DNA of 64,000 nucleotides from a bacterium (lineage in GTDB: Bacteria > Patescibacteriota > Patescibacteriia > SBBB01), in assembly GCA_005239895.1 (NCBI GenBank), contig SBBB01000011.1, positions 24,957 to 88,956 on the forward strand. Direction: 5' to 3'. The notes below the pieces were generated by a model, which was given only the letters and a program-made list of their open reading frames with translations, did no database searches and was not told the origin of the DNA. Below are positions 22,876-50,428 of the stretch, in pieces (position 1 is the stretch's first letter; every line of letters begins with the position of its first letter). The translations under genes were made by a program, and so were the position numbers.

Positions 22876-22909
22876 CGTGACGCTATATCTCGATCGTGAT
22901 GAAGTGTCA
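22876..22909. repeat. 34-nt palindrome GTGACg..atCTCGATCGTGATGAAGTGTCAC (family copy a, degenerate left arm)
   Basis: Inverted repeat with a CGATCG centre. Related copies lie at 30417, 48607 and 50395. Confidence 0.8.
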
Positions 22910-23001
22910 CAGTGCAAAATTAGTATAATTTAATACAAATACTAAAACTTGCCATATAACACCTAGGCGCGATCGAGCTTAAGAGTGATAGCGTCAAAAA
23001 G

Positions 23002-23304
23002 TTAAACTTTTAGTTTTTCTAAATATGCAGATACTTGATCCACATCCGAATCAGCTAAAATATGTCCATCAATATCTAAAGTCGGGGTTTTGGTTTGACC
23101 AGATTTTTGTAACATCTCTTTAAAAAATTCTTCATTAGTCAAAACATTTCTTTCTTCAAATTTTATTTTTTTCTTATTTAAATAATCTAAAACATCTTTG
23201 CACCACGGACACCCTGTTTTAACATATATAATTATATTCATATTTTTAATCATTATCGTCCTATAATTTACTCCAAGACTTATAAACTTTAAAAAAATTA
23301 TCAT
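23002..23304 (-). CDS. glutaredoxin-like protein (CPWC active site)
   Basis: YVKTGCPWCKDV thioredoxin-fold motif. The true start may be the internal MNIIIY (79 aa). Confidence 0.75.
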   Translation of the reverse strand: MIIFLKFISLGVNYRTIMIKNMNIIIYVKTGCPWCKDVLDYLNKKKIKFEERNVLTNEEFFKEMLQKSGQTKTPTLDIDGHILADSDVDQVSAYLEKLKV

Positions 23305-23466
23305 TTTGTCATCCTCGGGCTTGACCCGGGGATCCAGGTTATGTTTAATAATTCTATACTCTGACCAGATATGCTGTCGACCACTATTGAAACAATGATC
23401 GTAAACGTGCGCGCTCCTGGATTCCCGCCTGCGCGGGAATGACAGGAAAAACGCAGAAATGACAGG
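23305..23466. repeat. MITE-like ~150-nt palindromic element, copy A (TGTCATCCTCGGG ... TTGACCCGGGGATCCAGGTTAT ... GCGCTCCTGGATTCCCG ... CGGGAATGACA)
   Basis: GC-rich inverted-repeat element with no ORF. A second copy lies at 46353-46490 and a TGTCATTCCCT fragment at ~11072. Confidence 0.65.
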
Positions 23467-23496
23467 AAAAATTTTCTACTTTCAACTTTTTACTTT

Positions 23497-25683
23497 CTAA
23501 CTCTTTGATGTTGGCCATTTTTCAATTGCTAAAAAGGTTTTAGAGCCTAATAAACCCCAAATATATTCAGTGATAAATGGCATAAATGGATGTAATAATT
23601 TTAGAGACTGTTTTAAGCAATGAACTAAAATTAATTGCGTATTTTTAGCGAGAGCAGAATCTTTTAATTGAGTTTTGCTCGCTTCAATATACTTATCAGC
23701 TAAATTATGCCAAATAAATTGATAAATAGTTTGACTAGCGTTATTTAGAGAAAAATTCTTTATATCTCCCGTAACTTTTTTAATAGTATCATCTAAATCC
23801 TGTAAAATCAATTTATCTTCGGGAGTTAAAGCCACGGGCTGTTGAACTGACTGCAATATATTTTTGTCACAATTCGCAACTATAAATCTAAATATATTCC
23901 ATAATTTATTAGCAAAATGTTTCATTCCCTTTACTTGATCTTCGTCAAATTTTACATCATTTCCAAAAGCAGCTCCAGACATAAGTCCCATGCGCAATGC
24001 ATCTGCTCCGTATTTTTCAATCATTTCTACGGGGTCAATTCCATTACCAAGTGATTTACTAAACTTGCGCCCATTTTTATCACGAACTATTCCGTGAATC
24101 ATCACTTCTCGAAATGGAACTTGCCCCAAGTGAAAACCGCTCATTAAAATCATACGCGAAATCCAAAGCTGTAAAATTTCGTAAGCTGGAGAAATAAGAG
24201 AGGTTGGATGAAAATTTTTTAGATCTTGAGATTTTTCTGGCCAACCTAAAGTAGAGAAAGTCCAAAGACCTGAAGAAAACCAGGTATCTAAAGTATCAGG
24301 ATCTTGAACCCAACCCTCACCTTTTGGAATTTTAATATCACAACAAACTTCGTCTCCCCGATACCAAATCGGAATACGATGTCCAAACCAAATTTGACGC
24401 GAAATACACCAATCTTTCAAATTATCTATCCAATGAAAATAAATTTTCTGAAATCTTTCTTGACTAATTTTTACTGCGCCACTACTTACACTCTCGCGCA
24501 TTATTTCATTTAAAGAAACCTGACTACCACTTTTAATTCCTGGTATTTCTGAATATGGAATTGTAAATTTTTTATTAATATCAACCCACCATTGTAATTT
24601 AGGCAAAAGTTCAATAATTGCTCCAGTTCTTTCAGAGATTGAAACATTTTGTTGAATTTTATCTTCTTTTTCAAGTAAGCCTTGATCCTTAAGCCAAGAC
24701 ACAACAACCTCTCTGGCTTCCGATACTTTTTTTCCATCCAAGTGTCCGACAGTCATTTTAGCATATTCATTAATTATTTGAGGGCGAGGCAAATTATGCC
24801 TATCAGCTATTTCCCAATCTACTTGGCTGTGAGCTGGTGTTACGCCCAAGGCTCCGGTGCCAAAATCTTTTTCCACTGATTCATCAGCAACAATTTTGAT
24901 ATGAATGGGAATATCGCAAAAAATTAAATCAAATTCTTGTCCAATATATTTTTTATATCTAATATCATCTGGATGAACTGCGACCGCCGTATCACCAACC
25001 TTAGTTTCAGGACGAGTAGTTGAAATCGCAATCGGGAAATCTTTAGAATATTTAAAAGTGTACAACTGAGTTTGACGATCTTCATAAATTATTTCATCGT
25101 CCGAAATAGTGGTTTGACCCTTAGGATCCCAATTTACAATTCGGTTTCCACGATAAATAAGTCCAGCTTCATACATTCTTTTAAAAGCCGTATAAACTGC
25201 AAATTGACGTTTTTCATCTAAGGCATAAGCATAACGACTCCAATCTAAAGAAGCACCCATCCGTTTGACCTGAGTTAAAATCACTTTTTCGCTTTTGAGC
25301 GCAAACTCCGTAATGCGTCTAACCAATTCTTCCCGACCTAAATCATATCTGTTTTTATGTTCTTCTTTTTGAATATCTTTTTCTACCCTAGCTTGGGTTG
25401 CAATTGCGGCTGAATCCGTGCCCGGAATCCAAATTATCTTTTTGCCGCACATACGCTGATAGCGAATCAAAACATCTTGAAGAGAGTCTTCATAAGCATG
25501 ACCTATATGCAGAACTCCGGTTACATTGGGAGGTGGAAGAACCATTGAGAATACTTCACGTTTATTTAATTCAGGATCAACGCCCTCAACGCTACTAACA
25601 AAAATTTTAGCTTCATCCCATTTTTTATTAATCTCATCTTCAACTAAAACTGGATCATAGTTTTTAGGTAATGTTGTTTCCAT
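23497..25683 (-). CDS. valS: valyl-tRNA synthetase (short form, 728 aa)
   Basis: The PPPNVTGVLHIGHA HIGH-region and the KFSKSLGN KMSKS-region are ValRS-type. It lacks the long C-terminal coiled coil. Confidence 0.85.
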   Translation of the reverse strand: METTLPKNYDPVLVEDEINKKWDEAKIFVSSVEGVDPELNKREVFSMVLPPPNVTGVLHIGHAYEDSLQDVLIRYQRMCGKKIIWIPGTDSAAIATQARVEKDIQKEEHKNRYDLGREELVRRITEFALKSEKVILTQVKRMGASLDWSRYAYALDEKRQFAVYTAFKRMYEAGLIYRGNRIVNWDPKGQTTISDDEIIYEDRQTQLYTFKYSKDFPIAISTTRPETKVGDTAVAVHPDDIRYKKYIGQEFDLIFCDIPIHIKIVADESVEKDFGTGALGVTPAHSQVDWEIADRHNLPRPQIINEYAKMTVGHLDGKKVSEAREVVVSWLKDQGLLEKEDKIQQNVSISERTGAIIELLPKLQWWVDINKKFTIPYSEIPGIKSGSQVSLNEIMRESVSSGAVKISQERFQKIYFHWIDNLKDWCISRQIWFGHRIPIWYRGDEVCCDIKIPKGEGWVQDPDTLDTWFSSGLWTFSTLGWPEKSQDLKNFHPTSLISPAYEILQLWISRMILMSGFHLGQVPFREVMIHGIVRDKNGRKFSKSLGNGIDPVEMIEKYGADALRMGLMSGAAFGNDVKFDEDQVKGMKHFANKLWNIFRFIVANCDKNILQSVQQPVALTPEDKLILQDLDDTIKKVTGDIKNFSLNNASQTIYQFIWHNLADKYIEASKTQLKDSALAKNTQLILVHCLKQSLKLLHPFMPFITEYIWGLLGSKTFLAIEKWPTSKS

Positions 25684-25721
25684 TTTTATATTATTACGGT
25701 TTGGCGGGTTGAGCTTAAAAT

Positions 25722-28106
25722 TTAATTTTGAACAGATTTAGTATCTTGATCTTTTAACATTAATTCGATGATTTTTACTAGTTCCAAATCACTCAATTTA
25801 TTAATCTGAACATATTGATTAGAAAGAGTATAAAGATTATTATCAATATACAAACTCCTATTTATTTGAGTAGGTCTAGTATAATACATGTCTTGATTGA
25901 ACCCAGGATCTGATTTTATGTTCTTAGGTAAAGTATGAACAACCTTGCCCTTTAATTTAAATCCAGATGTGTCTACATTAAATACCATGGCTGAATATAT
26001 AGGGCTAATATCAGCTAGTTCCTCATTGCCACCAAATCTGGGTAAATTGTCAGCAATAAACCTCGTAAATGTCACGGGTATGACTAATAAATTCTTTGGT
26101 TTAGAAAATAAAAAGGCTTTATGATTATTTAGAGCTTCGGAAGATGTATAAGCATCTCCAATTTCATATTTATCTATTTCTTTCAAATTATTAACATCTC
26201 TCACATCAAATAATGATAATTTTAAAGCTGCATTCATAACTCCACCGTGCTCATTTTCCTTGGTCTCTCTTCCAAAACCTATAAGATAATTGTCATCGTA
26301 AGGATGTAAATAATTAGAGTAACCAGGAATTTTTAATTGACCTAGAACCGTTGGATTCTTAGGATCTTTAAGATCAATTGCAAACAATGGATCTACTTGT
26401 TTAAATGTAACCATATAAGCTCGGTTTTGCATAAATCTAACTGAATATATGCGCTCACCTTTAGCTAACCCCTCCACTTTTCCAACCACTTTTAAATTTT
26501 CATCTAAAACATACAAATTATTATAGGATTCTGTTGGTTTAGCGTCATCGTCAAAACGAGAAAATGACCAGCTTTGATTTTTAGTGGTGGCAATTCTAAA
26601 ATACCCCTTATCTTCATCCATTGAAAACTGATTTAAAACGTGACCCGTAACTTCTCCCACAGTCTGATATTTTAATTGCCCTTCTTTAATATTTATTTTA
26701 TGAATTATACTTTTTTCTAACTCTTTGGAAATATCAACATAAACAATCTTTGTCTTTTCTTTTATGGTTTCTTCAAGTTTGTCTTGTTCTTCCTTGGATA
26801 GTTCTTCAACATATTTTTCAATAATATTTTCAATTTTACTTAGTTTTTCTTCATTTGATAAAACAAGTTTATCAATACCTTCAATATAAATCACGCGTTC
26901 CCGATCTTTAGCTGGCAATAATGGATATACAACCTCTTTTAATATATTAAAAGTCAAATCATGTTCATTAAAATACTTGGTGTAAACAATATAAATATTA
27001 TTTTCAGAAACATACATATTCTGTCCACTATCCAACAAATAAACTTCATTCTTAACTGGATTAGTAATGTTTTTCAAGTCCAACATGGAAATACTCGTAA
27101 AATTATAACTACGGTAAGGTACATCAAAATAATATACATCTGGACAATTACACCTGGGACTGGTTTGGTCGTTGCTTAAAGTATTTCCATCTTCAATAAC
27201 CATAGGCAATACACGCTCATAATCTGAAATAGAATAAGTGTATTTATTAGTTATAAAATAAAGATGATCTTTAATCAAACGAGAATTAAAATAACTTCCT
27301 TCAAATTGAAAATCTTTAATTTTCTTAGGATTTTTACGATCCGTAATATCAAATACTTCTACAACTGTGTAATAATTGTTATTGTAATGATGTCGCCTAC
27401 TAGAAGGCTTAGAAATTGTAAAGGGTTGATAAGTATTGCCATATACTATTAACTTATTTCCACTGACATATAAACCCGATGCGGTTTTGTTTTTAAAATC
27501 TAAATTTGCCACTACTTCGGATTCTTGCGAAGGACGAGCTTTTAAAATCCACAGTTTATTATTAGCCAAAGTATAAATATAGTCACCATCGGTTTTAACC
27601 ACATCTGCTTCATCTACACCTGCTACTTGAATATTAGTTCTAGAATAATCATCGCCATCACTAGGCGGCGACCCAAGCCCAGTCTCCTCACCAGCTTCAA
27701 AACCCATTGGACCAACAGAATCAACACCTATACTCCTTGAACCCATACTATCTGATGACTTAAAACGAACTCTATCATATCTATACGAAGCCTGTTGGGA
27801 TAATTGATTATCTTTAAGATATTCAGTCAGTTCATTCAAATCTTTAAATTTTTTCATTTTCGACTGCTTGGCTAATTGCTGATTCAAAAATTGACTAGAT
27901 GTTTTGTTGCCATTCTTAAGAGCAACATACTTTTCGTCCGACATGCCTACCAACCTAGCGCTGGCTATAACAGCTACAATACCAACGATCAACAAACAAG
28001 CCATGGATATACTAAACAATATTTTATTTGTCGGTTGAACAGAGATTGTCCCGTCTTTGGAATTAAAATTCTTGTCTGAATGGTTAGATTGATTCATATA
28101 TTTCAT
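25722..28106 (-). CDS. membrane-anchored beta-propeller domain protein (PF09826-like)
   Basis: N-terminal TM helix. The C-terminal region IYSVRFMQNRAYMVTFKQVDPLFAIDLKDPKNPTVLGQLKIPGYSNYLHPYDDNYLIGFG matches the conserved core of the beta-propeller domain family, as I recall it. Confidence 0.65.
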   Translation of the reverse strand: MKYMNQSNHSDKNFNSKDGTISVQPTNKILFSISMACLLIVGIVAVIASARLVGMSDEKYVALKNGNKTSSQFLNQQLAKQSKMKKFKDLNELTEYLKDNQLSQQASYRYDRVRFKSSDSMGSRSIGVDSVGPMGFEAGEETGLGSPPSDGDDYSRTNIQVAGVDEADVVKTDGDYIYTLANNKLWILKARPSQESEVVANLDFKNKTASGLYVSGNKLIVYGNTYQPFTISKPSSRRHHYNNNYYTVVEVFDITDRKNPKKIKDFQFEGSYFNSRLIKDHLYFITNKYTYSISDYERVLPMVIEDGNTLSNDQTSPRCNCPDVYYFDVPYRSYNFTSISMLDLKNITNPVKNEVYLLDSGQNMYVSENNIYIVYTKYFNEHDLTFNILKEVVYPLLPAKDRERVIYIEGIDKLVLSNEEKLSKIENIIEKYVEELSKEEQDKLEETIKEKTKIVYVDISKELEKSIIHKINIKEGQLKYQTVGEVTGHVLNQFSMDEDKGYFRIATTKNQSWSFSRFDDDAKPTESYNNLYVLDENLKVVGKVEGLAKGERIYSVRFMQNRAYMVTFKQVDPLFAIDLKDPKNPTVLGQLKIPGYSNYLHPYDDNYLIGFGRETKENEHGGVMNAALKLSLFDVRDVNNLKEIDKYEIGDAYTSSEALNNHKAFLFSKPKNLLVIPVTFTRFIADNLPRFGGNEELADISPIYSAMVFNVDTSGFKLKGKVVHTLPKNIKSDPGFNQDMYYTRPTQINRSLYIDNNLYTLSNQYVQINKLSDLELVKIIELMLKDQDTKSVQN

Positions 28107-28116
28107 GAATTAAAAA

Positions 28117-30147
<2,031 letters not shown>

Positions 30148-30416
30148 TTAAAATTTTCCAACAAAATTAAGCCCTTTCAGGCATTTATATTATACTAAAT
30201 ATTTAACGTTTAGGCAAGTATAATTAGTACGACAAAATTTCAACATATAAATACACTCTTAAAATAACAAAAACCTATACATTGATATTAACTGAGATAT
30301 TTAATTTAAATAACATTTCACTAAATTATATTTCTCTCTTCGATCTTCGATAACATTTCAATGATATTTAACTTCGATACTTAGATATCACCTTACTTAG
30401 ATATCACCTTAAAACC

Positions 30417-30450
30417 GTGACAACCTATCACGATCGAGATGAAGTGTCAC
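30417..30450. repeat. 34-nt palindrome GTGACAACCTATCACGATCGAGATGAAGTGTCAC (family copy b); preceded by a 2x16-nt tandem ACTTAGATATCACCTT
   Basis: Read directly from the divergent spacer between gyrB and the plus-strand membrane-protein gene. Confidence 0.8.
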
Positions 30451-30718
30451 GGTCACTCAATAAATTATACGACAATTACATATCATAATAATAGTATACA
30501 ACATATACCATACTTCAAGGTTAAATTTAAAAAGGCGGGTTGCACTTTATTTAAAAATTAATATGTTTAATACTCGGGGTATCAAACATGTGGAAACCCT
30601 TCGGCTACGCTCAGGGTCTGCACCCCCATTCATCTCTGAAGTAAACTCCAAAGTGTTCTGGGAGTTTCGATCAACCCTGTTTGTTTTATCTAGATAATGC
30701 TAAAATAATGTAATTACT

Positions 30719-32203: not shown

Positions 32204-32327
32204 TTTCCTTAGGCCTAAGGGCCATCAGGCCCTAACGGCATAATTCGTCCTGTAATATGATAGGACGACAAAGAACAAAAGTTACAAACTAAAAAGCTAC
32301 AAGCTAATTCCTAATTATATTTTTAAT

Positions 32328-33095
32328 ATGTCCATATTAATTGCAAATTGGAAAATGAATCCTGATTCTCTTAACAAAGCTGAATTGTTGTTTGCCCAAG
32401 AAATAAAAAATAACACCAAACATCAAATCATTATATGTCCACCTCATATTTGGTTAGAATCACTTTATAAAAAATACAAAAAATATATACAAAAAAATAT
32501 TGGACTGGGATGTCAAAACATAAACCATGAAGAAAATGGAGCGCATACCGGCGAAGTATCTATTAAAATGATTAAAGACAGTGGCTGCAAATATATTATT
32601 ATTGGGCATTCGGAAAGACGCGCCACTGGAGAAACCCAAGAAATAATTAATCAGAAGATTCAGCTGACCCTAAAACATAAACTTACTCCCATACTTTGTA
32701 TTGGAGAGCCTATGGTAATAAAACAACAAGGCCTGCAGTCCGTAAAAAATTATTTAGAAACCCAATTAATAGAATGTCTTAAAAATATATCTCTTGCGGA
32801 TAAAAAACAAAAAATTTTTATTGCGTACGAACCAATTTGGGCTATTGGTAATTTTGCCATACAGCATCTTAATCAAACTGAAATTTTAGAAATTAAACAA
32901 AGTATTGAGTTAACCTTGCAAAACTTATTCTCAACGCTAAATATTCATAAAACATTTAAAATTTTATACGGTGGTAGCGTGGATGAGAAAAATATAAAAA
33001 CTTTTGTGGGGAATAATTTAATGGACGGGTCTTTGATTGGAACTTCCTCTTTAAACCCTAAAACATTTCAAACAATTTGTAAGCAAATCAATTAA
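32328..33095 (+). CDS. tpiA: triosephosphate isomerase
   Basis: NWKMN, IIGHSERR, AYEPIWAIG and YGGSV motifs. Confidence 0.95.
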   Translation: MSILIANWKMNPDSLNKAELLFAQEIKNNTKHQIIICPPHIWLESLYKKYKKYIQKNIGLGCQNINHEENGAHTGEVSIKMIKDSGCKYIIIGHSERRATGETQEIINQKIQLTLKHKLTPILCIGEPMVIKQQGLQSVKNYLETQLIECLKNISLADKKQKIFIAYEPIWAIGNFAIQHLNQTEILEIKQSIELTLQNLFSTLNIHKTFKILYGGSVDEKNIKTFVGNNLMDGSLIGTSSLNPKTFQTICKQIN

Positions 33096-33601
33096 CGCTT
33101 AGTCCATTGAGGCGCGCGACGAGCTCGCTTCAAACCATACTTTTTTCTTTCTTTAATTCTCGCGTCGCGAGTTAATAAACCAGCGGATCTTAAAGATAAT
33201 CTTAAATTTTCATCTAAATTAACTAAAGCTTTAGCTAAGGCATTGCGTATACTGCTCACCTGTCCATTTATACCTCCGCCTTTAATATAAATTGTGCAAT
33301 CCATAATATCTTTCTTGCCGCACATAATCAAAGGTTGCAAAATCAATTCTTGAAGAGTTTTTTGAGGAAAATATTGAGTATAATCTTTATTATTAATAGT
33401 TATAGTTCCCGTACCATTTTGAAATACGCGCAAAGTACCAACAGCTGTTTTGCGTTTACCAACTGCATAAACATACTTGCCATCTGGTAATGATACGCCC
33501 TCTGATTTACCAACTAAACTGTCTGTAACCGGTTTTACTAATTTATCTTTTTTACTGGCTCTAATTTTTCTAATTTTAACTTTGTCGGTAGTATTTTTCA
33601 T
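33092..33601 (-). CDS. rpsI: 30S ribosomal protein S9 with N-terminal extension
   Basis: The C-terminal ...GLKRARRAPQWTKR is the S9 signature. The ~40-aa basic N-terminal extension is not typical of S9. Confidence 0.9.
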   Translation of the reverse strand: MKNTTDKVKIRKIRASKKDKLVKPVTDSLVGKSEGVSLPDGKYVYAVGKRKTAVGTLRVFQNGTGTITINNKDYTQYFPQKTLQELILQPLIMCGKKDIMDCTIYIKGGGINGQVSSIRNALAKALVNLDENLRLSLRSAGLLTRDARIKERKKYGLKRARRAPQWTKR

Positions 33602-33616
33602 AACTTTAAATTGTAA

Positions 33617-35818: not shown

Positions 35819-36322
35819 TTATACTCTTCTGGCTCGGGGTGGTCTACATCCATTATGAGCCATGGGTGTTACATCTTTAATCTTAACAATATATAAACCA
35901 TTCGCATTTAAAGCTTTAATAGCTGATTCTCTACCACCACCTATACCACTTACAAAAACCTCTACTTCGCGCATACCATAGGGTTTTAATCTTTCCACAG
36001 CTTCTTTCACTACTTCGGAAGCTGCGTAGGGAGTTGATTTTTTGGGACCCTTAAATCCTTTCATCCCCGAACTCACCAACACCAAAACATCTCCCTTGGG
36101 ATTAGTGATACTAACAATCGTATTATTATAGGAAGCATGAATATGAGCTTGCCCGCGTAATATTTCTGGCTTAGCTTTATTTGTTTTTAAAGTATGCGTT
36201 TTTTTGCTATATGCCTTTTCTGACTTCAATTCTTGCAAATCACCACCTGGGGCACTAGTAGTAGTGCTATTGGCAGTATTATCAATTGTTGTTTTTTGGG
36301 TTGTTTCGATCAACATAATCAA
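35819..36322 (-). CDS. rpsK: 30S ribosomal protein S11 with N-terminal extension
   Basis: The C-terminal ~125 aa are S11-like (AHIHASYNNTIVSITNPKGDVL...). The ~40-aa N-terminal extension is Thr-rich. Confidence 0.9.
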   Translation of the reverse strand: MIMLIETTQKTTIDNTANSTTTSAPGGDLQELKSEKAYSKKTHTLKTNKAKPEILRGQAHIHASYNNTIVSITNPKGDVLVLVSSGMKGFKGPKKSTPYAASEVVKEAVERLKPYGMREVEVFVSGIGGGRESAIKALNANGLYIVKIKDVTPMAHNGCRPPRARRV

Positions 36323-40392: not shown

Positions 40393-40399
40393 AAGCTAA

Positions 40400-40750: not shown

Positions 40751-40761
40751 AATTTAAAAAT

Positions 40762-42520: not shown

Positions 42521-42536
42521 ATTATTAAAATTAATT

Positions 42537-44261
42537 CTATTTATAAGCTATAGCCCTTACGATATTCCAACCATACTCACTATTAGGGGTCTTTTTAAAT
42601 ACCTTACGAAACACTGTAACCGCTTGCGCTTCTTTGTTTAATGATCTAGTTGCAGGCTTCAATCCATAAACAATACGATCTACAGCTAACCAATCAGATT
42701 TACTATTTGGTGTTCGTTTAAAAACTATTTTAAAATCATTGATTCCTTTTTGCTCAGCTCGTAGGTTTCTCTGCAATGGTTTTAATCCTATTTGAATGTA
42801 AGTGTAATCTCGCCAATCTTCAAAACTATTGGGCAGACGACCATAAATTCTACCAAACTCAGCCAGAGTTTGCTTATCAACTCTAAATTTTACACTTCCA
42901 CTAGCCTTGGGTGATGTAACGGATGAATTATTTGGCAGTAGTGTAGGAGGAACTATATTAATATTGTTATTGGTAACATGAAATGAAACCTCACCCGAAA
43001 CTATAGAAGCCAGATTAAGAGCTGTATAAAGATTAATTTTACCACTTCCTAATTTATTAATAAAACCGGGATTTTTAGCATCAATGCTATCAGTAGTGTT
43101 TATAATAATTTCAGTTATTTGTTTAGCGCTTAAACCTGGTCTAAAACTTTTAATCAAAGCTGCTTCTCCTGAAACCACACCCGTGGCAATAGATGTTCCA
43201 CTCCAAAAACCACCCTGATATTCTTCATATCCGTGTTGAGGGCTATACACCTGCAAGCCGAAAAAACTTGATCCTGGAGCGCTAACATCAACGCATCTTT
43301 GACCAAAATTAAAAGACACTGGTTTTTGATCTAACGCGTCCAAACCTGTAACCCCCACAATCCTATTTACAGATTCACCAACATCATAACAAATAGGATA
43401 CAAAAGAACTTCGTCTAAATTTAAAAAATATTCTTTAGATTTATTACCAGCCGCAGCGACTAAAACGACATTATTATTATAAGCGTTTTTAATACTTGTA
43501 AAAATAGTATTACTATAACCTACTCCCACAAAACTCATATTAATAATGTGTGCACCATTCGCAACAGCATAATCAATAGCGCGAGCGACTGCTAGGGTAT
43601 CTCCATTGCCTTCATTATTTAAAACCCTAAGAGGCATAATTTTACTTTTCCAAGCTACACCCGTAACACCTTGTTTATTATTTCCTTCAGCTGCCACAAC
43701 GCCAGCTACAGTGGTGCCATGATTAATTCCCGTGGATGTATGCTTATCATCAAATACCGGATGAACATTATTAGTATTAGATACAAAATCCCAGCCATAA
43801 ATATCGTCAATATACCCATTCTTATCATTATCAATATTATCATTAGGAATTTCTCGAGTATTAATCCAGGTATTGTTTACTAAATCTAAGTTATTAATGT
43901 CAACCCCCGAATCCAACACCGCCACTACAACTCCACTGCCATTTGAAATATTCCAAGCCTCGGGAGCTTTAATTTCTGGTAAATACCACTGCTTATCATA
44001 ATAAGGATCTTGGGGCTCAAAAGAAGAATAATAAAGATAATTTGGTTCTGCAATCTCCACCTGCTGATTTAGCTTGTAATCTGTCGAAATATTATGAACA
44101 TCTACACCCTGATTAAATTTAAACTTATAAAGTTCTTGATAGTTTTTAAATTTTACTACCAACTGATTATCCCTAGAAGAAGCTAACTGTTGCTTATTAA
44201 TTTTTAAAAAATTGTAAGACAATAATCCTAAAAAAATAAAAATTATTAACCGCAACTTCAT
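42537..44261 (-). CDS. subtilisin-like serine protease (S8) with two C-terminal ~45-aa tandem repeats
   Basis: Catalytic-triad contexts VAVLDSGVD, HGTTVAGV and GTSIATGVVSG, plus an N-terminal signal/TM. The C-terminus carries 2x ...FK.FK+TPNS..W.....Y. Confidence 0.9.
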   Translation of the reverse strand: MKLRLIIFIFLGLLSYNFLKINKQQLASSRDNQLVVKFKNYQELYKFKFNQGVDVHNISTDYKLNQQVEIAEPNYLYYSSFEPQDPYYDKQWYLPEIKAPEAWNISNGSGVVVAVLDSGVDINNLDLVNNTWINTREIPNDNIDNDKNGYIDDIYGWDFVSNTNNVHPVFDDKHTSTGINHGTTVAGVVAAEGNNKQGVTGVAWKSKIMPLRVLNNEGNGDTLAVARAIDYAVANGAHIINMSFVGVGYSNTIFTSIKNAYNNNVVLVAAAGNKSKEYFLNLDEVLLYPICYDVGESVNRIVGVTGLDALDQKPVSFNFGQRCVDVSAPGSSFFGLQVYSPQHGYEEYQGGFWSGTSIATGVVSGEAALIKSFRPGLSAKQITEIIINTTDSIDAKNPGFINKLGSGKINLYTALNLASIVSGEVSFHVTNNNINIVPPTLLPNNSSVTSPKASGSVKFRVDKQTLAEFGRIYGRLPNSFEDWRDYTYIQIGLKPLQRNLRAEQKGINDFKIVFKRTPNSKSDWLAVDRIVYGLKPATRSLNKEAQAVTVFRKVFKKTPNSEYGWNIVRAIAYK

Positions 44262-44380
44262 AAATAATAATATTTTAATTACAATAAAATCGTTGATTCC
44301 ACAATCTCAACTGTATTTAAATTATATATCACTTGCTACGTCAAGTTTTTAATCTGAATCTAATGCTGTAGTTATTATGA

Positions 44381-44671
44381 TTACACTATCTGAAAATCAA
44401 TATGAATAATTTGCTCAGTTAAGGGATTACGTTGTAGTTCTTTTACTTTAACTTTCAAGGGTTGGTCTTGATCAATATACAGATCGCATAAAGAATCCTT
44501 TTTAATATTTAATAAAGGTTTAAAATGCGAACTATATTCCATCTCAATAGTTAAAGGTTTAAAATTTACTCCATAAACAACCGCAGGCATAAAACCACCT
44601 TTGCGCACAACTCGCACGGACTTACCTAACACTGATCTTTTTTTTGATTTAATAATAATAGAATCTGACAT
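44381..44671 (-). CDS. rplY: 50S ribosomal protein L25 (short, N-terminal-domain-only form)
   Basis: 96-aa protein resembling the short single-domain L25 form (RKGGFMPAVVYG...). Confidence 0.7.
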   Translation of the reverse strand: MSDSIIIKSKKRSVLGKSVRVVRKGGFMPAVVYGVNFKPLTIEMEYSSHFKPLLNIKKDSLCDLYIDQDQPLKVKVKELQRNPLTEQIIHIDFQIV

Positions 44672-44735
44672 ATAAATAATTAGGCTTTAGGCTTTAGTAA
44701 ATTAAAACTTGAAATTTGTAATTCTATCAAGTTTC

Positions 44736-45077
44736 TTAAATTTCTTCTTCTGTTAAAGTTTTTAAAAACTTTTTGGAATTTAATAATTCATGCAAATTTA
44801 GCACCTCATCCAAATGAACACTGGTTTTATCTTTTAATAATAAACTCTCTTCACTATTTAAATCTGTAACCAAACAAAAAGAACTGCTACCCAGCTGATT
44901 GTTTGTAACTAGCGCTAAAATAGAAGTACGACATTTCTTACAATTAACGTGCACTAAATACATGCCATTATTTTCTGCTAATAATTTAGCGCTGAATATG
45001 CCGTACTTAGTCTCGCAACTAGGACAACATGGAATTAAACCGTGTACTTCAGCGGATTTTTTATTTGCAAGTGCCAT
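44736..45077 (-). CDS. zinc-ribbon hypothetical protein (113 aa)
   Basis: CCPSC...CKKC four-Cys arrangement. No other assignment. Confidence 0.4.
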   Translation of the reverse strand: MALANKKSAEVHGLIPCCPSCETKYGIFSAKLLAENNGMYLVHVNCKKCRTSILALVTNNQLGSSSFCLVTDLNSEESLLLKDKTSVHLDEVLNLHELLNSKKFLKTLTEEEI

Positions 45078-45180
45078 AATCGTTTATTATTATCTTATAT
45101 AGTATAACATAAACTTTTGAAACGTCAACACTTTTATTGTATTACCAAAATTTGTTTAAAACCAGTGCATCAATATTGAT

Positions 45181-46296
45181 CTAATCAATCTTTTTAAATG
45201 CACCGTTACTGTAAGTTTTAACAACCAAATCAGCATCAAACGCGTGATTACCCAAATATAAGTATTGTCCAGCTGCGCCTTTAAAATCTTGGGCTAGAAA
45301 ATCAATTATCTCCGTATTAGTAGTTTTGCCAACAGATACAGCTTCAGTCAGTCTAGCCACAGCATCATAAACATGATCGCCCGCCACCCCCGGAAGAATA
45401 TTATATACTTTTTGATAATTTTCGGCATATACAAAATTATCATGCCCCACAATAAGCTGATTTTCAAATCTGCCTTCTGCAATTCTTACTTGATCACCAT
45501 CTTCCATATTTACATAACCAACTATGGGAATATCCCAACCAATATCTTTAATCTGTTTAGCTAAAAGGCCTGATTGCGGGAACACACTATTAACCAATAC
45601 ATCCGGATTTGCAGATTTAACTTTTAAAATAGTAGTTTTAAAATCATTGCTAGTTTTTTCAACAGATTCATTTGCAACTAATTCATAACCATTTTCAGTA
45701 ACAGCTTTAGCCACAGCTTCCGCAAAAGCCTTGGGTCCATCCGCTTTATTTGAAATAATAGAAACCTTTTTGTATTTACCTTTTAATAATAAAGCTTCTA
45801 AACGCACGGCTTCTTTATCTGGACTGGGCATAAATCTCAACACCCATTTTTTACCATCATTTATTTCTTTAGCAATACCAATGCCAATCAAAGGCACTTG
45901 TTTTTGTTCCGCAATATGAGAAGCAGCTATAGAAGAAGCTGAACTAAATGTTACCAGCGCATTAACCTTGTCAATATTTATTAATTTGTGTACAGCTGCT
46001 ACGGTCTTTTTGGTATCTAAAGCATCGTCTTCATAAATAATTTCAATTTTTTCTTTAACCTTGGCATCTAAATCGGTTAAAGCTAATTCAACACTATTTT
46101 TTCCAGATTCACCTAAAGACGGAGCTGGTCCAGTTAAAGGCAAAATAACACCAATTTTAAATTTTGACTGAACTTCAGTTGGACTATTTAAAAATCTATA
46201 CCCTACCAAACCAATAATTAGAAGCAACACTACGCCAAGAGCTATTTTCATATTTTTATTCGCCCAGTTAGAGGTTTGATTATTATCTATATTCAT
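45181..46296 (-). CDS. ABC transporter substrate-binding protein, branched-chain amino acid (LivJ-like) family
   Basis: N-terminal anchor, then KIGVILPLTGPAPSLGESGKN typical of type-I periplasmic binding proteins. Confidence 0.8.
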   Translation of the reverse strand: MNIDNNQTSNWANKNMKIALGVVLLLIIGLVGYRFLNSPTEVQSKFKIGVILPLTGPAPSLGESGKNSVELALTDLDAKVKEKIEIIYEDDALDTKKTVAAVHKLINIDKVNALVTFSSASSIAASHIAEQKQVPLIGIGIAKEINDGKKWVLRFMPSPDKEAVRLEALLLKGKYKKVSIISNKADGPKAFAEAVAKAVTENGYELVANESVEKTSNDFKTTILKVKSANPDVLVNSVFPQSGLLAKQIKDIGWDIPIVGYVNMEDGDQVRIAEGRFENQLIVGHDNFVYAENYQKVYNILPGVAGDHVYDAVARLTEAVSVGKTTNTEIIDFLAQDFKGAAGQYLYLGNHAFDADLVVKTYSNGAFKKID

Positions 46297-46352
46297 ATTT
46301 TATATTTAAAAATTAATTGAATACTATATACTTTGTGTTATTTCAATCATCT

Positions 46353-46490
46353 CCTGTCATTCCCTGTTTTTTCTGTCGTCCTCGGGTACATTCGGACATA
46401 AATGTCCTCAGTATCACGACTTGACCCGGGGATCCAGGTTATATTTAATTGTACGCGCTCCTGGATTCCCGATCAGGTCGGGAATGACAA
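46353..46490. repeat. MITE-like palindromic element, copy B
   Basis: It shares the modules TGTCRTCCTCGGG / TTGACCCGGGGATCCAGGTTAT / GCGCTCCTGGATTCCCG / CGGGAATGACA with copy A at 23305-23466, with different internal insertions. Confidence 0.65.
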
Positions 46491-46497
46491 AAGAGGA

Positions 46498-46692
46498 CTA
46501 ATCCGTTACTTCTATCCTCGTATCACCTTCATATTCGTATAATTTACCATTTTCTTCATCTTTAGTCTTTTTATGTGAGCCATCGCAAAGAGGTTTATTT
46601 TTAGATAAACCGCACATACAAATCCACTTACTCTCGCCACTTACTTTAATTTCACAAGGATGCTGCTCGTCATGTTTTATTAATCTAGACAT
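46498..46692 (-). CDS. CDGSH-type iron-sulfur domain protein
   Basis: 64 aa containing CMCGLSKNKPLCDGSH, the C-x-C-x2-S-x3-P-x-CDGSH consensus. Confidence 0.75.
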   Translation of the reverse strand: MSRLIKHDEQHPCEIKVSGESKWICMCGLSKNKPLCDGSHKKTKDEENGKLYEYEGDTRIEVTD

Positions 46693-46824
46693 ATTAATTT
46701 ATTAAAAACTTTAAACTTACAACTTTAAGCTTAATTAATTTTATCACTACTATACTTAAATTGCAAATTTTGCTTGTACGTTATCCAGGACATATGTAAT
46801 TTGATTTTTTTAAAATATTTTATT

Positions 46825-46841
46825 ATTCTATATAATATAGA
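46825..46841. promoter_or_regulatory. perfect 17-nt palindrome TTCTATATAATATAGAA overlapping a -10-like TATAAT upstream of the 115-aa gene
   Basis: Read directly from the sequence. It is followed by a GGGAGAG RBS and the ATG at 46886. Confidence 0.4.
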
Positions 46842-46885
46842 ATCTGGTATTAAAACCCAAAAGATAATGAACACAGGGAGAGAAA

Positions 46886-47233
46886 ATGAAACTATTTAAA
46901 ATATTGAAAAATATTCTGGATGCAAAAAATAGTGTACTGTATGACGGATTTAATGCTGTATATCATCTGAAAAATGATGATATTTATCAAGGAACAGCAA
47001 GATACGTTTTTCTTGTGCGAAATAAATTACAAATTTTACTAGCAGATGAATTTAGAAAGAAGCACTATTCGGGTATAGTAGTGGATATAGCTGTTTGTGA
47101 AGACGTGAATGTCCAGCAAGAAAAAATTGGTTATAAAAAAGCTAGGAGTTTTCACTCCTGTGCTAACGATAAAATGACAAAAGAAGAAATGGAGCACGCT
47201 GAGTATCGCAGGCAAGGAGGATGCGAAATATAA
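46886..47233 (+). CDS. hypothetical protein (115 aa)
   Basis: It has a good RBS and a strong downstream terminator. No domain was recognised. Confidence 0.5.
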   Translation: MKLFKILKNILDAKNSVLYDGFNAVYHLKNDDIYQGTARYVFLVRNKLQILLADEFRKKHYSGIVVDIAVCEDVNVQQEKIGYKKARSFHSCANDKMTKEEMEHAEYRRQGGCEI

Positions 47234-47251
47234 CATTATAAAAAACATCTA

Positions 47252-47292
47252 AGGGTCACCAGAGTATTTGCTGTGTGACCCTTCTAAAATTC
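47252..47292 (+). terminator. rho-independent terminator (AGGGTCAC ... GTGACCCT + U-rich tail)
   Basis: 8-bp GC-rich stem 18 nt after the 115-aa stop, followed by TCTAAAATTCT. A second GC hairpin (GTCTACA...CGCGGCCGCG...TGTAGAC) lies at ~47333-47368. Confidence 0.65.
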
Positions 47293-47398
47293 TAACCCGA
47301 ACTCAACATTTGTTCATTGTATGGGACAAACCGTGTCTACAACTCAGCGCGGCCGCGTTGAAGTGTAGACGCACACTGAAACTCAACCCTTTACGGTT

Positions 47399-48499
47399 CT
47401 AATCCAACCAGTCTTGTTTATCTTTCAAAAACTCTTTAATACGACCTAGACCTTCGGTAATTTTACTAACATCCAAAGCATAAGATAAACGAATATGGTC
47501 GGGCGCTCCAAACCAAGTGCCATCATAAACAATTACTTTATATTTATAAAAAAGTTCTGACACAACCCGGTTAGAATTTTTTATGTAAGGCAAAACATAA
47601 AAAGCTCCCTCGGGTTTACGAACTTTAAAACCCAATTGATTTAAACCTTTATAAATCAAATCTCGTCTTTGATGCCAAATTTTTACTTGCTGTTTAATAT
47701 AACTTTTCGGTGCTTGCATGGCAGCCACAGACATTTCTTGACCCATAATATTAGTGTTCATAGAAGTGTGCACTTTCATATCAATCACTTTTTGAACAAA
47801 ATTTTTATCAGGAGTCCAAAGATATCCCACGCGCAATCCACACATAGCATAAGTTTTAGAAAAAGAATTTATAGTAATTACACGCGGCCCTTTTATAATA
47901 TAATTTTTACGACCATAAATTAAATCCTTATACACTTCATCCGAAATAACCCATACTTTTAATTTTCGGCTTAATTTTTCAATTTCTTTTAAAGTGTTAA
48001 TTTCTTCAACCATTCCAGTCGGATTAGACGGTGAATTTATTAAAACTGCTTTTACGTGTTTAATTTTCTCTTTAAAATCTTTTAAATTAATACGCCCGTC
48101 TTGTAAATCCGTATAAACTGGTTCCATTTGGGCCAACCGAACATTAAAAGGATAAGAATAATAATAAGGCCTGCACAGAAGCACTTTTTGAGGTCCGGGT
48201 TCTGTAGCTAAAACTCGCATAGCTAAATCTAGAGCTTCAGAAGCTCCATTGGTAATTACAAAATTTTCACAAGAAGCATGGGGATATTCTTTGGATAACA
48301 GCTGACGAAGGTTTAGCTCCCCCTGAATCAATCCGTATTGAAAAAGACGATTATTTTCTAAATTTTTAAAAATTTCTTTAGGAGGAACAAGATCGGGTTG
48401 ACCAGAACCAAAAGAAATTATTCCATCGTTTCCGCCTCGCCCAATAAAAAAAGATGGACTATTAATAGGTTTTTTTGCTAGTTTATTTTTTGTAGACAT
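47399..48499 (-). CDS. class I/II pyridoxal-phosphate-dependent aminotransferase
   Basis: 366 aa with the PLP-lysine context SFSKTYAMCGLRVGY, typical of aspartate/aromatic aminotransferases. Confidence 0.85.
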   Translation of the reverse strand: MSTKNKLAKKPINSPSFFIGRGGNDGIISFGSGQPDLVPPKEIFKNLENNRLFQYGLIQGELNLRQLLSKEYPHASCENFVITNGASEALDLAMRVLATEPGPQKVLLCRPYYYSYPFNVRLAQMEPVYTDLQDGRINLKDFKEKIKHVKAVLINSPSNPTGMVEEINTLKEIEKLSRKLKVWVISDEVYKDLIYGRKNYIIKGPRVITINSFSKTYAMCGLRVGYLWTPDKNFVQKVIDMKVHTSMNTNIMGQEMSVAAMQAPKSYIKQQVKIWHQRRDLIYKGLNQLGFKVRKPEGAFYVLPYIKNSNRVVSELFYKYKVIVYDGTWFGAPDHIRLSYALDVSKITEGLGRIKEFLKDKQDWLD

Positions 48500-48606
48500 T
48501 TTTATAAATTCAATAATTATTTAAAAACCGATTGTGTTAAATAATACTAGTATTTAACTAATCTATCAAGGGTACTATAAAAATTTAAACATTTATTATT
48601 CTAGCC

Positions 48607-48640
48607 GTGACACTTCGTCACGATCGTGACGAAACGTCAC
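48607..48640. repeat. 34-nt palindrome GTGACACTTCGTCACGATCGTGACGAAACGTCAC (family copy c)
   Basis: In the divergent spacer between the aminotransferase and the 482-aa gene. Confidence 0.8.
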
Positions 48641-48799
48641 GCTCTTGTTCTTATGTTCTTCTATTTTGCAAGCTTTACAAATCCTTCTAACTAACAGGAT
48701 TGACAAAATAATACAAACTTGGTTTACTTTAAATAGGTATTGGATTTCTAATACTCTACTCGTAACTCGAAAACCAACTTTAACTTAAGGAGGACACTA

Positions 48800-50248
48800 A
48801 TGAAAACGGATGCGTTGAAACAAACAATTGGAAACAAGGTTACAAAACTCTTGCCAAACTATACAAAATTTATAGTCGAATGTAGGCATGAAGATGGTTT
48901 TGTATTCAATCGTATAATAGATATGATTCCTGGAGCAACTGCCTTGGCCAATTTAATGGGACAATCCCCGCTAGCAGAAGCTGAGGCTATCCTGCAATAT
49001 CCAAATGACGAATATATACTGGTACCGCGAGGCACACAGGTGTTGCAATTTATAATGGATAAGTCTGCTGAAGAAATCCCGATAGCCGCTATACTTGTGT
49101 GCGGCAATTCAATATTCAATGGAGTAGTCTCTGGACACAATGCGTATTACAGTATTTTCTCTTGGGAAGAACAAGAAAACATCAAAGAAAAAATTGCAAT
49201 TCAAAACAGTGTCTTGTTCAAAGAGTTTATTCCATCTAAATACTATCAGCATTCTGGTATCACAGTTAAAAATATATCTTCGCACCAAAGACACCCAGAA
49301 CAAAAACCAGTGTTGAGCTTGAACCTCTTTCGGGCTATGAAACAAAATCAACCAGATAGCATTGGCAGAAAGTGGAACTGGGATCATGCAAAAAATCCAG
49401 TGATGTTTACTCAAGGTGAACCACTGTCTCCAGATGGTTTTAATAGCCTGATTATTTGGTTTTATCATTCTACAACAAAACAATGGCTTGGGTGGAACTG
49501 CGAACATCGCACCAATATATCTGGGTTGTGCATTATGGGTGACCCAAATGTTGCAAGCTACTCAGAAAATGCGCCAAAAGATTATGTAGATTTATTGATT
49601 GAGCCAGTATTCATGGGTGTAAGCTTGACAGATTTTATCACTTATGTCGGCAGAATCTTTTCACCAAATAAACCAAATCAAGAACAATATCCAAAAACTC
49701 CTCAAGAGCTAGCTGAAAAAATGGCTGAAACACCTTACGGACGAGATCCACAACACCATTCTTTGTACGCGATTCCTACACCCATAAATAAATGGCGTGG
49801 ACAATGGGCATGGGTGTACGAAGTAGTGGAGCTATACGGAGAAGAACATAGATACCAATTAATTTGGCTCCCGAGCAACATTGTGTTTACACGCGGATTA
49901 CAATGCTTACCAAACCACTATGAAACAAATCCCCCACCACCGCTACTTGGTAAAGCTGTTGAACTTACAGAACCTAAATGGCTTAATGCAAGTATTGAAC
50001 TAGGAATTATTCTAAATCGCTCATGTGATCTTGATCCTCCCAATAATCCTGAGAATCCACCCAATAACAGTGGTTTCTTTAAAGCCATTGAATCAATACC
50101 ATCACTAGGGGCCTATCACAACGGAGCTATACAATTTGTGGAACCAAACAAATTGCCAGATTGCGACACTTCTAAGCCTGTGTATTGGTTACAAAACAGG
50201 GACAATAATCTATCAAAAGCACTATCTATTCTACAAGAAGTTACCTAG
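48800..50248 (+). CDS. hypothetical protein (482 aa), orphan, compositionally atypical
   Basis: Strong SD (AAGGAGG 6 nt upstream). GC is visibly higher than genome background. No TM or signal peptide, and no recognisable motif. A 9-Cys protein (contains CEHRTNISGLC, among others). Confidence 0.6.
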   Translation: MKTDALKQTIGNKVTKLLPNYTKFIVECRHEDGFVFNRIIDMIPGATALANLMGQSPLAEAEAILQYPNDEYILVPRGTQVLQFIMDKSAEEIPIAAILVCGNSIFNGVVSGHNAYYSIFSWEEQENIKEKIAIQNSVLFKEFIPSKYYQHSGITVKNISSHQRHPEQKPVLSLNLFRAMKQNQPDSIGRKWNWDHAKNPVMFTQGEPLSPDGFNSLIIWFYHSTTKQWLGWNCEHRTNISGLCIMGDPNVASYSENAPKDYVDLLIEPVFMGVSLTDFITYVGRIFSPNKPNQEQYPKTPQELAEKMAETPYGRDPQHHSLYAIPTPINKWRGQWAWVYEVVELYGEEHRYQLIWLPSNIVFTRGLQCLPNHYETNPPPPLLGKAVELTEPKWLNASIELGIILNRSCDLDPPNNPENPPNNSGFFKAIESIPSLGAYHNGAIQFVEPNKLPDCDTSKPVYWLQNRDNNLSKALSILQEVT

Positions 50249-50336
50249 TACTAAAGGAATAATAGTGCACATGAATTATAAGGCGTTGGGGTCGTATTTA
50301 TTCAGCGACCTCAACCCAACTCCTACCAATTCCTAA

Positions 50337-50370
50337 AACCCAAAAATTGTTTGGGTTTTATTTTTTTATA
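50337..50370 (+). terminator. rho-independent terminator (AAAACCCAAA-AATTG-TTTGGGTTTT + T7)
   Basis: Perfect 10-bp stem followed by ATTTTTTT, downstream of the 482-aa gene. It is preceded by a second hairpin (GTTGGGGTCG...CGACCTCAAC). Confidence 0.75.
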
Positions 50371-50394
50371 AAAATTTTTTATAATATTCTTAAC

Positions 50395-50428
50395 GTGACA
50401 TTTCATCACGATCGAGATGAAGTGTCAC
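50395..50428. repeat. 34-nt palindrome GTGACATTTCATCACGATCGAGATGAAGTGTCAC (family copy d)
   Basis: In the convergent spacer between the 482-aa gene and ftsW/rodA. Confidence 0.8.

Follow-up and report, generated by a model that had tools for sequence, protein, structure and literature searches.

A family of short extragenic palindromes shared by distant lineages of the Candidate Phyla Radiation

Four palindromes in a patescibacterial genome

The 64-kb stretch of DNA analyzed here (hereafter the window; contig SBBB01000011.1 of assembly GCA_005239895.1, positions 24,957 to 88,956) derives from a metagenome-assembled genome (MAG) of Patescibacteria, or Candidate Phyla Radiation (CPR), and carries in its spacers the four copies of a 34-nt palindrome that are the subject of this report. 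With a GC content of 33% and the standard genetic code, the window encodes the str/S10 and alpha ribosomal operons, dnaK-dnaJ, atpD, gyrB, rodA and secDF, along with a type IV pilin-like protein, many glycosyltransferases, and many proteins that have no family match. All named relatives of its RodA protein belong to Parcubacteria or Patescibacteria, and the closest are just 52-55% identical; the host therefore represents an isolated CPR lineage. No match to a transcription factor, transposase, or recombinase family was found among the window proteins scanned, and the sole match to Rfam at gathering thresholds across the window is a tRNA.

A search with the pattern GTGAC-N9-CGATCG-N9-GTCAC returns exactly four matches in the window (Table 1), compared with none expected and none in 100 dinucleotide-preserving shuffles of the same sequence, and a chance origin of the four copies is ruled out. 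An earlier, sequence-only reading of the window had already recognized this family, although it began the first copy at 22876 rather than 22877. Fuzzy searches allowing up to nine substitutions, half-site searches, and a covariance model (R1) revealed no extra copy, either within the window itself or in the 7 kb adjoining it on the left, corresponding to a density of approximately one copy per 18 kb (four in 71 kb). The bare hexamer CGATCG occurs 11 times in the window, versus 3.4 occurrences expected.

Each element comprises two inverted 14-bp arms around a 6-bp center, and the relaxed core of the family can be written as TTCACGRTCGTGAA. Over their 36-40 nt, copies 3 and 4 are almost perfectly palindromic, with two asymmetric positions each, whereas copies 1 and 2 have four and five asymmetric positions, respectively, all confined to one arm, such that the previous description of the arms as nearly perfect 17-mers suits the former pair and not the latter. 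Copy 3 resolves into two sub-palindromes of 15 bp (GTGAC-N5-GTCAC) that are separated by GATC and have their centers 19 bp apart, and every arm in the family holds GTGA...TCAC. The conserved unit takes in a flanking C (CGTGAC...), and a G follows GTCAC in three of the four copies. Comparison of the flanks of the window copies uncovered no common sequence beyond the palindrome itself: the immediate flanks read TACC, AACC, AGCC, and TAAC here, and TAAGC in a second organism described below, with no consistent flanking repeat or target-site duplication.

Table 1. Coordinates of the palindromes and of the features associated with them. Positions refer to the window unless a contig is named.
Feature	Position	Strand	Sequence and remarks
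Copy 1	22877..22910	none	GTGACGCTATATCTCGATCGTGATGAAGTGTCAC; right arm canonical, left arm degenerate at positions 6, 9, 10, and 14
Copy 2	30417..30450	none	GTGACAACCTATCACGATCGAGATGAAGTGTCAC; left arm degenerate at positions 7-10; palindrome extends over 30414-30453, ACCGTGAC...GTCACGGT
Copy 3	48607..48640	none	GTGAC-ACTTC-GTCAC-GATC-GTGAC-GAAAC-GTCAC
Copy 4	50395..50428	none	GTGACATTTCATCACGATCGAGATGAAGTGTCAC; best copy of the family; palindrome extends over 50392-50431, AACGTGAC...GTCACGTT
482-aa gene	48800..50248	+	Bracketed by copies 3 and 4
3′ hairpin	50285..50315	+	GTTGGGGTCG...CGACCTCAAC; comes first in the 3′ module conserved in the family of the 482-aa gene
Intrinsic terminator of the 482-aa gene	50334..50368	+	AAAACCCAAA...TTTGGGTTTT plus T-run; canonical, directly upstream of copy 4
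Possibly related palindrome, 36 nt	47335..47370	none	GTCTACAACTCAGCGCGGCCGCGTTGAAGTGTAGAC, core GCGGCCGC; convergent genes on either side
L015 palindrome, 42 nt	L015:1850-1891	none	ACATTCGCTATCTTTTCACG-GT-CGTGAAAAGTTAGCGAATTT

Genomic placement of the window copies

All four copies reside between genes (P ~8e-5 under random placement), and the sequence-only reading was correct in assigning two of them to divergent spacers (copies 2 and 3) and two to convergent or 3′ regions (copy 4, in a convergent spacer, and copy 1, 3′ of the glutaredoxin gene, grx). Strand-switch spacers hold four of the four copies, a bias that becomes marginal (P ~0.04) when the length of the spacers is taken into account. 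Measured from the grx stop codon (23002), copy 1 is 92 nt downstream; it is also approximately 97 nt past a possible 63-aa open reading frame (ORF; 22589-22780), and its spacer is convergent only if this ORF is real. Copy 2 sits midway in the 574-nt divergent spacer between gyrB and a Wzy_C-like gene, 273 nt from the start of the former and 269 nt from that of the latter. Copy 3 occupies the divergent spacer between an aminotransferase gene (108 nt from its start) and the 482-aa gene (160 nt from its start), and copy 4 is found where the 482-aa gene (146 nt after its stop) and rodA (73 nt after its stop) converge.

Neither copy 2 nor copy 3 overlaps a predicted promoter: each is upstream of both promoters predicted for its divergent spacer, at 40-200 nt from the -35 boxes, with the proviso that promoter scans are uninformative in these AT-rich spacers. 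A conserved spacing to -35/-10 elements, which had been suggested as a test of function, was not found: there is no fixed distance from the copies to such elements, promoters, or start codons, and gene starts are anywhere from 36 to 560 nt away.

The surroundings of copy 2 have further peculiarities. Four bases to its left, at 30381-30412, the 16-nt unit CTTAGATATCACCTTA is present as an exact tandem duplicate, and on the other side the leader of the Wzy_C-like gene contains, within an otherwise AT-rich spacer, a GC-rich, structured-looking stretch (30530-30680) that has no Rfam match at the gathering score. Copy 2 is also where two Logan contigs from the source sample break off (30422 and 30443); these otherwise match the window exactly, and a Logan contig of the second organism (L014) begins, at its position 1, at the center of a palindrome copy. 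These palindromes break short-read assemblies. A perfect fold-back does not account for the break at copy 2, which is imperfect.

A rare gene family with a conserved 3′ module

The 482-aa gene is, as had been pointed out, bracketed by two of the copies. Its product has no match in Pfam, NCBIfam, PADLOC, or PDB, and a single-sequence AlphaFold model was unusable (pLDDT 33). The gene had been regarded as atypical, but it is not unique: a search of 1.84 billion representative proteins identified 13 homologues of its product, which form a rare family with it. The conserved region spans approximately residues 266-434, and shorter family members of 185-217 aa consist of that region alone. One such protein of 185 aa, which is 40% identical to the 482-aa protein (E ~2e-20 by tblastn and ~1e-24 by blastp), is encoded on L015, the contig of the closest RodA relative (GCA_964395945.1).

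Downstream of this L015 gene lie, in order, a GTTGAGG...CCTCAAC hairpin, an intrinsic terminator, and a 42-nt palindrome. The same order recurs in the window, where the hairpin that follows the 482-aa gene aligns with that of L015 and copy 4 is positioned 32 nt past the canonical intrinsic terminator. By its position, the L015 palindrome is an orthologue of copy 4, with a core, TCACGGTCGTGA, that differs by a single base from the TCACGATCGTGA of the family, a change that retains TCACGRTCGTGA but replaces GATC with GGTC and so abolishes CGATCG. The sequence-only reading had singled out a Dam-type GATC as a feature of the palindrome; the L015 element lacks it, and dependence on such a site is therefore not supported. 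The outer arms of the L015 palindrome are unrelated in sequence to those of the window copies, yet their complementarity is kept.

The unit formed by gene, terminator, and palindrome is upstream of and co-oriented with rodA in L015, whereas in the window it is downstream and inverted. Relative to L015, the window also has an insert of approximately 5.4 kb between rodA and a 113-aa gene; its junction on the rodA side is occupied by copy 4. Another homologue of the 482-aa protein (P0123), from a GC-richer organism, has a terminator and no palindrome in its gene context; the contig of a further homologue (P0129) is too short to judge.

The L015 contig additionally carries a stem-loop-rich module of approximately 130 nt, including an intrinsic terminator, that is repeated after two unrelated genes (605-740 and 1709-1850) at approximately 95% identity. 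One stem-loop differs in its central bases between the two copies of this module, and behind the first there is a degenerate form of the palindrome. No member of the family was found in the more distant RodA relatives (L016 and L018-L021). One of these, the Parcubacteria contig L018, has a different element: a 32-nt imperfect, loop-less palindrome, ACTGTCCATCCCGAAGCGTCGGGATAAACAGT, which occurs twice (4009-4040 and 8520-8551) in opposite orientations, with all 32 positions identical, asymmetries included. Its two copies flank a block comprising genes for a 238-aa protein, a 346-aa protein, RodA, and L25, and one of them is upstream of gyrB, as is copy 2 in the window. The same contig carries a 50-nt palindrome (17261-17310) just upstream of a gene for an Rrf2-family regulator.

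A second organism carrying the family

A pattern search of JGI metagenomes produced matches on three long contigs of one organism, Ga0210057 (hereafter Ga), a distant CPR bacterium with a GC content of 42%, and an identical Ga locus is present in a second metagenome. The Ga element is a perfect palindrome of 46-50 nt, CTAAGC-GTGACATTTATTCA-CGATCG-TGAATAAATGTCAC-GCTTAG. At least five distinct copies occur on contigs totaling approximately 428 kb, and they are identical or nearly so over 46 nt, including the lineage-specific CTAAGC/GCTTAG extension. Ribosomal proteins of Ga and of the window host are 39-47% identical, and the palindrome is the sole DNA that the two sets of sequences share. At the positions left free by the search pattern, the families of the two organisms agree at five of seven per arm, and the relationship between them is therefore real.

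Three of the Ga copies fall within 6.5 kb of one contig (L012; 4161, 9955, and 10648), where they flank both a block encoding 179-aa and 1638-aa SNase/LTD proteins and a gene for a 200-aa protein with a PaaX_M (Cas2-like) domain; a gene with a DeoR-type helix-turn-helix (HTH) adjoins. One copy is 36-72 nt upstream of the start of the PaaX-like gene. The remaining two Ga copies are in the divergent spacer between alaS and a 237-aa gene and upstream of a holA-like gene. Among the Ga copies, Ga_A and Ga_L007 are in divergent spacers. Across both organisms, the copies occupy divergent, co-directional, and convergent spacers, with four of the nine between divergent genes and seven upstream of at least one gene. 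The adjoining genes (gyrB, grx, aminotransferase, rodA, holA-like, alaS, and a nuclease) exhibit no common theme, and the two organisms have no non-housekeeping proteins in common near the copies. The PaaX-like protein was considered as a cognate factor and set aside: it has no homologue in the window, a large database returned only the protein itself, and its PDB matches are noise. Elsewhere in Ga, a perfect canonical parS, TGTTTCACGTGAAACA, is found inside a Mur-ligase gene (L008, 4431-4446), 3 kb from a palindrome copy and near a holA-like gene; this region may be origin-proximal.

The family was not detected in other collections. The strict 20-base pattern had no true match in GTDB, searched as one genome for each of 185,579 species; the single hit, in a MAG of Acidobacteria, is non-palindromic and consistent with chance. 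Scanning of IMG/VR viral sequences and BLAST of the 50-nt version against phages and plasmids gave no match, Rfam at E<=10 across copies 3 and 4 returned only noise and no attC, and no description of the motif, or of palindromic repeats in CPR bacteria, was found in the literature. A perfect 34-nt palindrome on contig L009 (824-857), GTGACCGTAATTCCCGATCGGGAATTACGGTCAC, is similar to the family only at the positions that the pattern required and is probably unrelated. It is situated inside a nitronate-monooxygenase/FabK-like gene that is split into two frames and has approximately 52 extra nucleotides relative to an otherwise gap-free alignment with PDB homologues, and this looks like the insertion of a palindrome into a gene.

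Invariant blocks and covarying arms

Among 18 arms from the two organisms, GTGAC (positions 1-5), C13, and CGA (positions 15-17) are invariant, and all differences are found at positions 6-12 and 14. The fuzzy search would have caught copies with mutated blocks, and hence this invariance is not an ascertainment effect in the window. In an alignment of ten copies, 12 of the 23 stem pairs have changed on both sides, and 85% of cells pair, versus 76% in shuffles. Both observed values exceed those in all 500 shuffles, and sliding the register reduces pairing to 28-48%. Such double changes also occur within a genome, as at the position pair that is CA/TG in copy 4 and CG/CG in copy 3. Some changes are asymmetric (Ga_C, Ga_L007, and copies 1 and 2); copies 1 and 2 retain the constant blocks despite their broken stems.

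All copies are predicted to fold on either strand, with energies of -15 to -25 kcal/mol and z-scores of -2.5 to -5.8, and the strand that folds better differs from copy to copy. No strain polymorphism was seen, as all recovered contigs of each organism are 100% identical.

Other palindromes and features of the window

A 36-nt palindrome at the left of copy 3 (Table 1) has TGAAGTGT in common with the right arm of the family but is not matched by the covariance model. It is possibly a family member, although this is unproven. Words resembling ACTCAAC recur around this palindrome and in the 3′ module of L015.

Two further palindromes are each built from paired sub-palindromes. At 19755-19788, two 15-bp palindromes of the form AGTAGTC-S-GACTACT are separated by CATA, giving the same layout (15+4+15) as in copy 3. 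This element precedes a possible small ORF by approximately 38 nt and is also upstream of grpE-dnaK-dnaJ. It is a candidate heat-shock operator, distinct from CIRCE, in which the spacing is N9. At 60469-60510, in the spacer upstream of an EPSP-synthase-family (murA-like) gene, a perfect 20+20 palindrome is formed from two 17-bp palindromes, TGGAAGTC-S-GACTTCCA, with centers 19 bp apart, and the two elements have an AGTC-S-GACT core in common. Separately, the ribosomal proteins S10 (3485-3976), S9 (33092-33601), S11 (35819-36322), and L23 (1641-2033) have 40-70 extra residues at the N terminus, ahead of the Pfam domain.

A possible REP-like repeat and alternative interpretations

The palindrome family is real and previously undescribed, but it is of a familiar kind, being either a short dispersed extragenic palindrome or a palindromic protein site. 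We tentatively prefer the interpretation that it is a dispersed, hairpin-forming DNA repeat, similar to repetitive extragenic palindromic (REP) elements, that is recognized by a sequence-specific protein. The sequence-only reading had listed an operator, a REP-like hairpin, and a recombination site as its options; the one we favor is thus among the three, whereas the mRNA-stabilizing or terminating function attached to it is unlikely, for reasons given below. Under the REP-like model, the family would consist of short, loop-less DNA palindromes, capable of forming hairpins or cruciforms, that are scattered in non-coding spacers. Each copy has three constrained blocks (GTGAC, TC-N-CGATCG-N-GA, and GTCAC), with two variable stretches of 6-7 nt between them that tend to co-vary on both arms. 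We infer that copies arise within a genome by copy-and-paste or conversion acting on the folded or duplex palindrome, and that a sequence-specific protein may read the constant blocks during copying, as RAYT (REP-associated tyrosine transposase)/Y1-type or other hairpin-recognizing enzymes do for REPs. Copies would persist only in long spacers, where they are harmless, and any effect on neighboring genes would be secondary, exerted at the level of DNA through protein docking or cruciform formation rather than via the transcript. Copying of a folded or duplex palindrome would explain why copies within a genome are near-identical, extensions included, and why arms that differ between lineages nevertheless remain complementary.

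Several observations favor this model. The near-identity of the Ga copies over 46 nt goes far beyond what a binding site needs, and the same interpretation is favored by placement in any type of spacer, by the lack of a regulon theme, and by symmetry that is maintained through double changes. It is also favored by the patchy distribution of the family, which has no true match in one genome per GTDB species yet is carried by lineages whose ribosomal proteins are only 39-47% identical, and by the palindrome pair of L018 and the repeated module of L015, which reveal that such repeats recur in this group. Moreover, both copy 4 and its L015 counterpart are beyond a canonical terminator and hence outside the upstream transcript.

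Other observations weigh against a REP-like origin. No RAYT/Y1, IS200/IS605, recombinase, or other mobilizing gene was seen near the copies in 71 kb of the host and approximately 45 kb of the second organism, and the elements have neither a GTAG-type head nor a target-site duplication. Copy number in the host is low. Classical REPs are rare between divergent genes, where four of the nine copies reside. The invariance of the blocks across very distant lineages, together with a copy that is conserved in position (copy 4 and L015), indicates purifying selection, which is unexpected for a purely selfish repeat. Nor was insertion polymorphism observed among the identical contigs recovered for each organism. 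The sequence-only reading had proposed that a neutral or selfish repeat would be recognizable by the lack of both positional bias and conservation in relatives, and here the outcome is divided: there is no strong positional bias given spacer length, and yet the motif has been retained in genomes both related and distant.

The main competing explanation, which we consider possible but on balance unlikely, is that a symmetric DNA-binding protein docks on the palindrome as a dimer of dimers and uses it as an operator or an architectural site. Each arm would then constitute a 15-bp sub-site, GTGAC-N5-RTCAC, with sub-site centers 19 bp apart; pairs of sites flanking a gene could loop and silence it. 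A candidate for this protein would be a winged-helix regulator particular to the lineage, for example the one with a PaaX_M domain whose gene is flanked by two Ga copies. Such a role is consistent with the blocks that are invariant in all 18 arms from two distant lineages, that survive in copies 1 and 2 where the stem is broken, and that are represented in L015 by the retained core. It is likewise consistent with the small number and clustering of the copies (three in 6.5 kb around the PaaX-like and DeoR-HTH genes, one of them close to the PaaX-like start) and with the seven of nine that are upstream of at least one gene. However, copy 4, the best of the family, and probably copy 1 are in convergent spacers where there is no promoter to regulate, and copies 2 and 3 are well upstream of the predicted -35 boxes rather than over them. 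The neighboring genes are thematically unrelated, no DNA-binding protein or PaaX-like homologue was found in the window, the 46-nt identity in Ga exceeds what binding requires, and symmetric changes within a genome are unexpected for half-sites that mutate independently.

A site for specific recombination, or the boundary of a cassette, would permit genes bracketed by two copies to be excised, inverted, or transposed, and it could account for the 34-bp, 14-6-14 geometry, which resembles the core sites of loxP, FRT, and dif or, when folded, an attC-like hairpin. Copy pairs bracket the 482-aa gene in the window and, in L012, the PaaX-like gene and the block encoding the 179-aa and 1638-aa proteins; in addition, the gene-terminator-palindrome unit has been inverted and moved relative to rodA between the window and L015, and copy 4 marks one junction of the 5.4-kb insertion. 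We nonetheless regard this explanation as improbable: the loci read yielded no integrase or recombinase gene, a palindromic center provides no directionality, the Logan contigs match the window exactly and reveal no alternative junctions, and there is neither an attC match in Rfam at E<=10 nor a cassette array. Any two dispersed repeats bracket something, and rearrangements are expected anyway at 55% RodA identity. A function in RNA, as a 3′ stabilizing hairpin, RNase III target, or bidirectional terminator, seems to us similarly improbable. Stable hairpins are predicted for both strands of every copy, copy 4 would fall in the 3′ untranslated region of rodA and copy 1 is downstream of grx, and a simple terminator scan flags copies 3 and 4, albeit with weak T-runs only, and not copies 1 and 2. 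Yet a proper U-tract is missing after every copy, a canonical terminator already precedes both copy 4 and its L015 counterpart, and copies 2, 3, Ga_A, and Ga_L007 are between divergent genes and probably untranscribed, copies 2 and 3 being upstream of both predicted promoters. The inconsistency in which strand folds better also speaks against such a function, as do the invariant blocks, which a stem does not need, and the lack of an Rfam match. A more speculative proposal, to which we attach little likelihood, is that the palindrome is the DNA target of a horizontally exchanged CPR protein system, distinct from integrons and from REP/RAYT, that delimits and moves or silences single-gene modules. 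Examples of such modules would be the 482-aa family with its hairpin-terminator-palindrome tail, the PaaX/Cas2-like gene, and the secreted nuclease block.

The non-coding elements, regulation, and genome plasticity of CPR bacteria are barely known; these organisms are not growable alone and have very few recognizable regulators or mobile elements. The family provides a defined, searchable motif common to distant CPR lineages, with constant blocks and covarying arms, that is conserved beside a rare gene family. It could be employed as bait for DNA affinity purification sequencing (DAP-seq) or pull-down, and as a marker of strain-level rearrangement in metagenomes. Even a merely selfish REP-like repeat would be useful to recognize, because it breaks assemblies and marks variable spacers.

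Comparison with known systems

Among sites bound by proteins, the operators of looping, dimer-of-dimers repressors and the CIRCE element of HrcA resemble the CPR family in being long palindromes of low copy number with constant blocks and variable spacers, in being conserved across distant taxa, and in that two sites can flank a gene. The CPR family differs from them in that it shows neither a constant position relative to promoters nor a coherent regulon nor a recognized cognate protein, and in having one or two copies in convergent spacers. The chromosome-organizing sites parS (ParB) and matS (MatP) are likewise of low copy number, clustered, and placed independently of genes; the inner half-sites TTCAC/GTGAA resemble those of parS, and the outer GTGAC/GTCAC equal those of matS. 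The 16-bp parS palindrome, TGTTNCACGTGNAACA, is excluded, with the half-sites of the CPR element 4 bp further apart at the dyad and with a perfect canonical parS existing in Ga only 3 kb from a copy; no match to parS better than three mismatches, which is within chance, occurs in the window. The 13-bp matS (GTGAC-RNY-GTCAC) has a spacing of N3, versus N24 for the whole CPR element or N5 within the arms of copy 3. MatP is known only from enterobacteria and vibrios.

The core sites of tyrosine recombinases (loxP, FRT, and dif) have the same 34-bp length, inverted arms, and 6-bp center, whereas the CPR family has a symmetric center, no recombinase in the loci read, and identical contig junctions. 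Integron attC sites have, when folded, conserved outer and inner boxes with a variable middle, as does the CPR palindrome, which otherwise departs from them: it has no GTTRRRY box, ends in GTGAC/GTCAC, and occurs in copies that are kilobases apart, with no integrase found and no Rfam hit. Miniature inverted-repeat transposable elements (MITEs) are also inconsistent with the family, which has no internal sequence and no consistent direct repeat at its flanks, and intrinsic terminators are inconsistent with the weak T-runs, which are confined to copies 3 and 4, and with the position of copy 4 past a true terminator. HIP1 of cyanobacteria (GCGATCGC) contains CGATCG, but it is an 8-mer occurring about once per gene, including inside genes; in the CPR family CGATCG is merely the center of a rare 34-nt element with the core W-CGATCG-W, and it is not conserved in L015.

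The closest resemblance is to the RAYT-associated REPs of Proteobacteria and their composite arrangements, the bacterial interspersed mosaic elements (BIMEs). The CPR elements differ from these in having no GTAG/GTGG head at the foot of the hairpin and no loop, in residing also in divergent spacers and after terminators, and probably in copy number, with REPs numbering tens to hundreds per genome and the CPR palindromes four in 71 kb of the host and at least five on the Ga contigs. No RAYT was seen in the 71 kb of host sequence scanned, and the genes flanked by copies (482-aa and PaaX-like) encode no Y1 domain. In common with REPs, the CPR elements are extragenic palindromes of approximately 35 nt, imperfect palindromes within the 20-40 nt range of REPs, that form hairpins, are dispersed singly or in pairs around genes, and are near-identical within a genome and different between lineages. 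What is unusual is that a single family is shared by very distant CPR lineages and that it has a conserved link to the 3′ end of a rare gene family.

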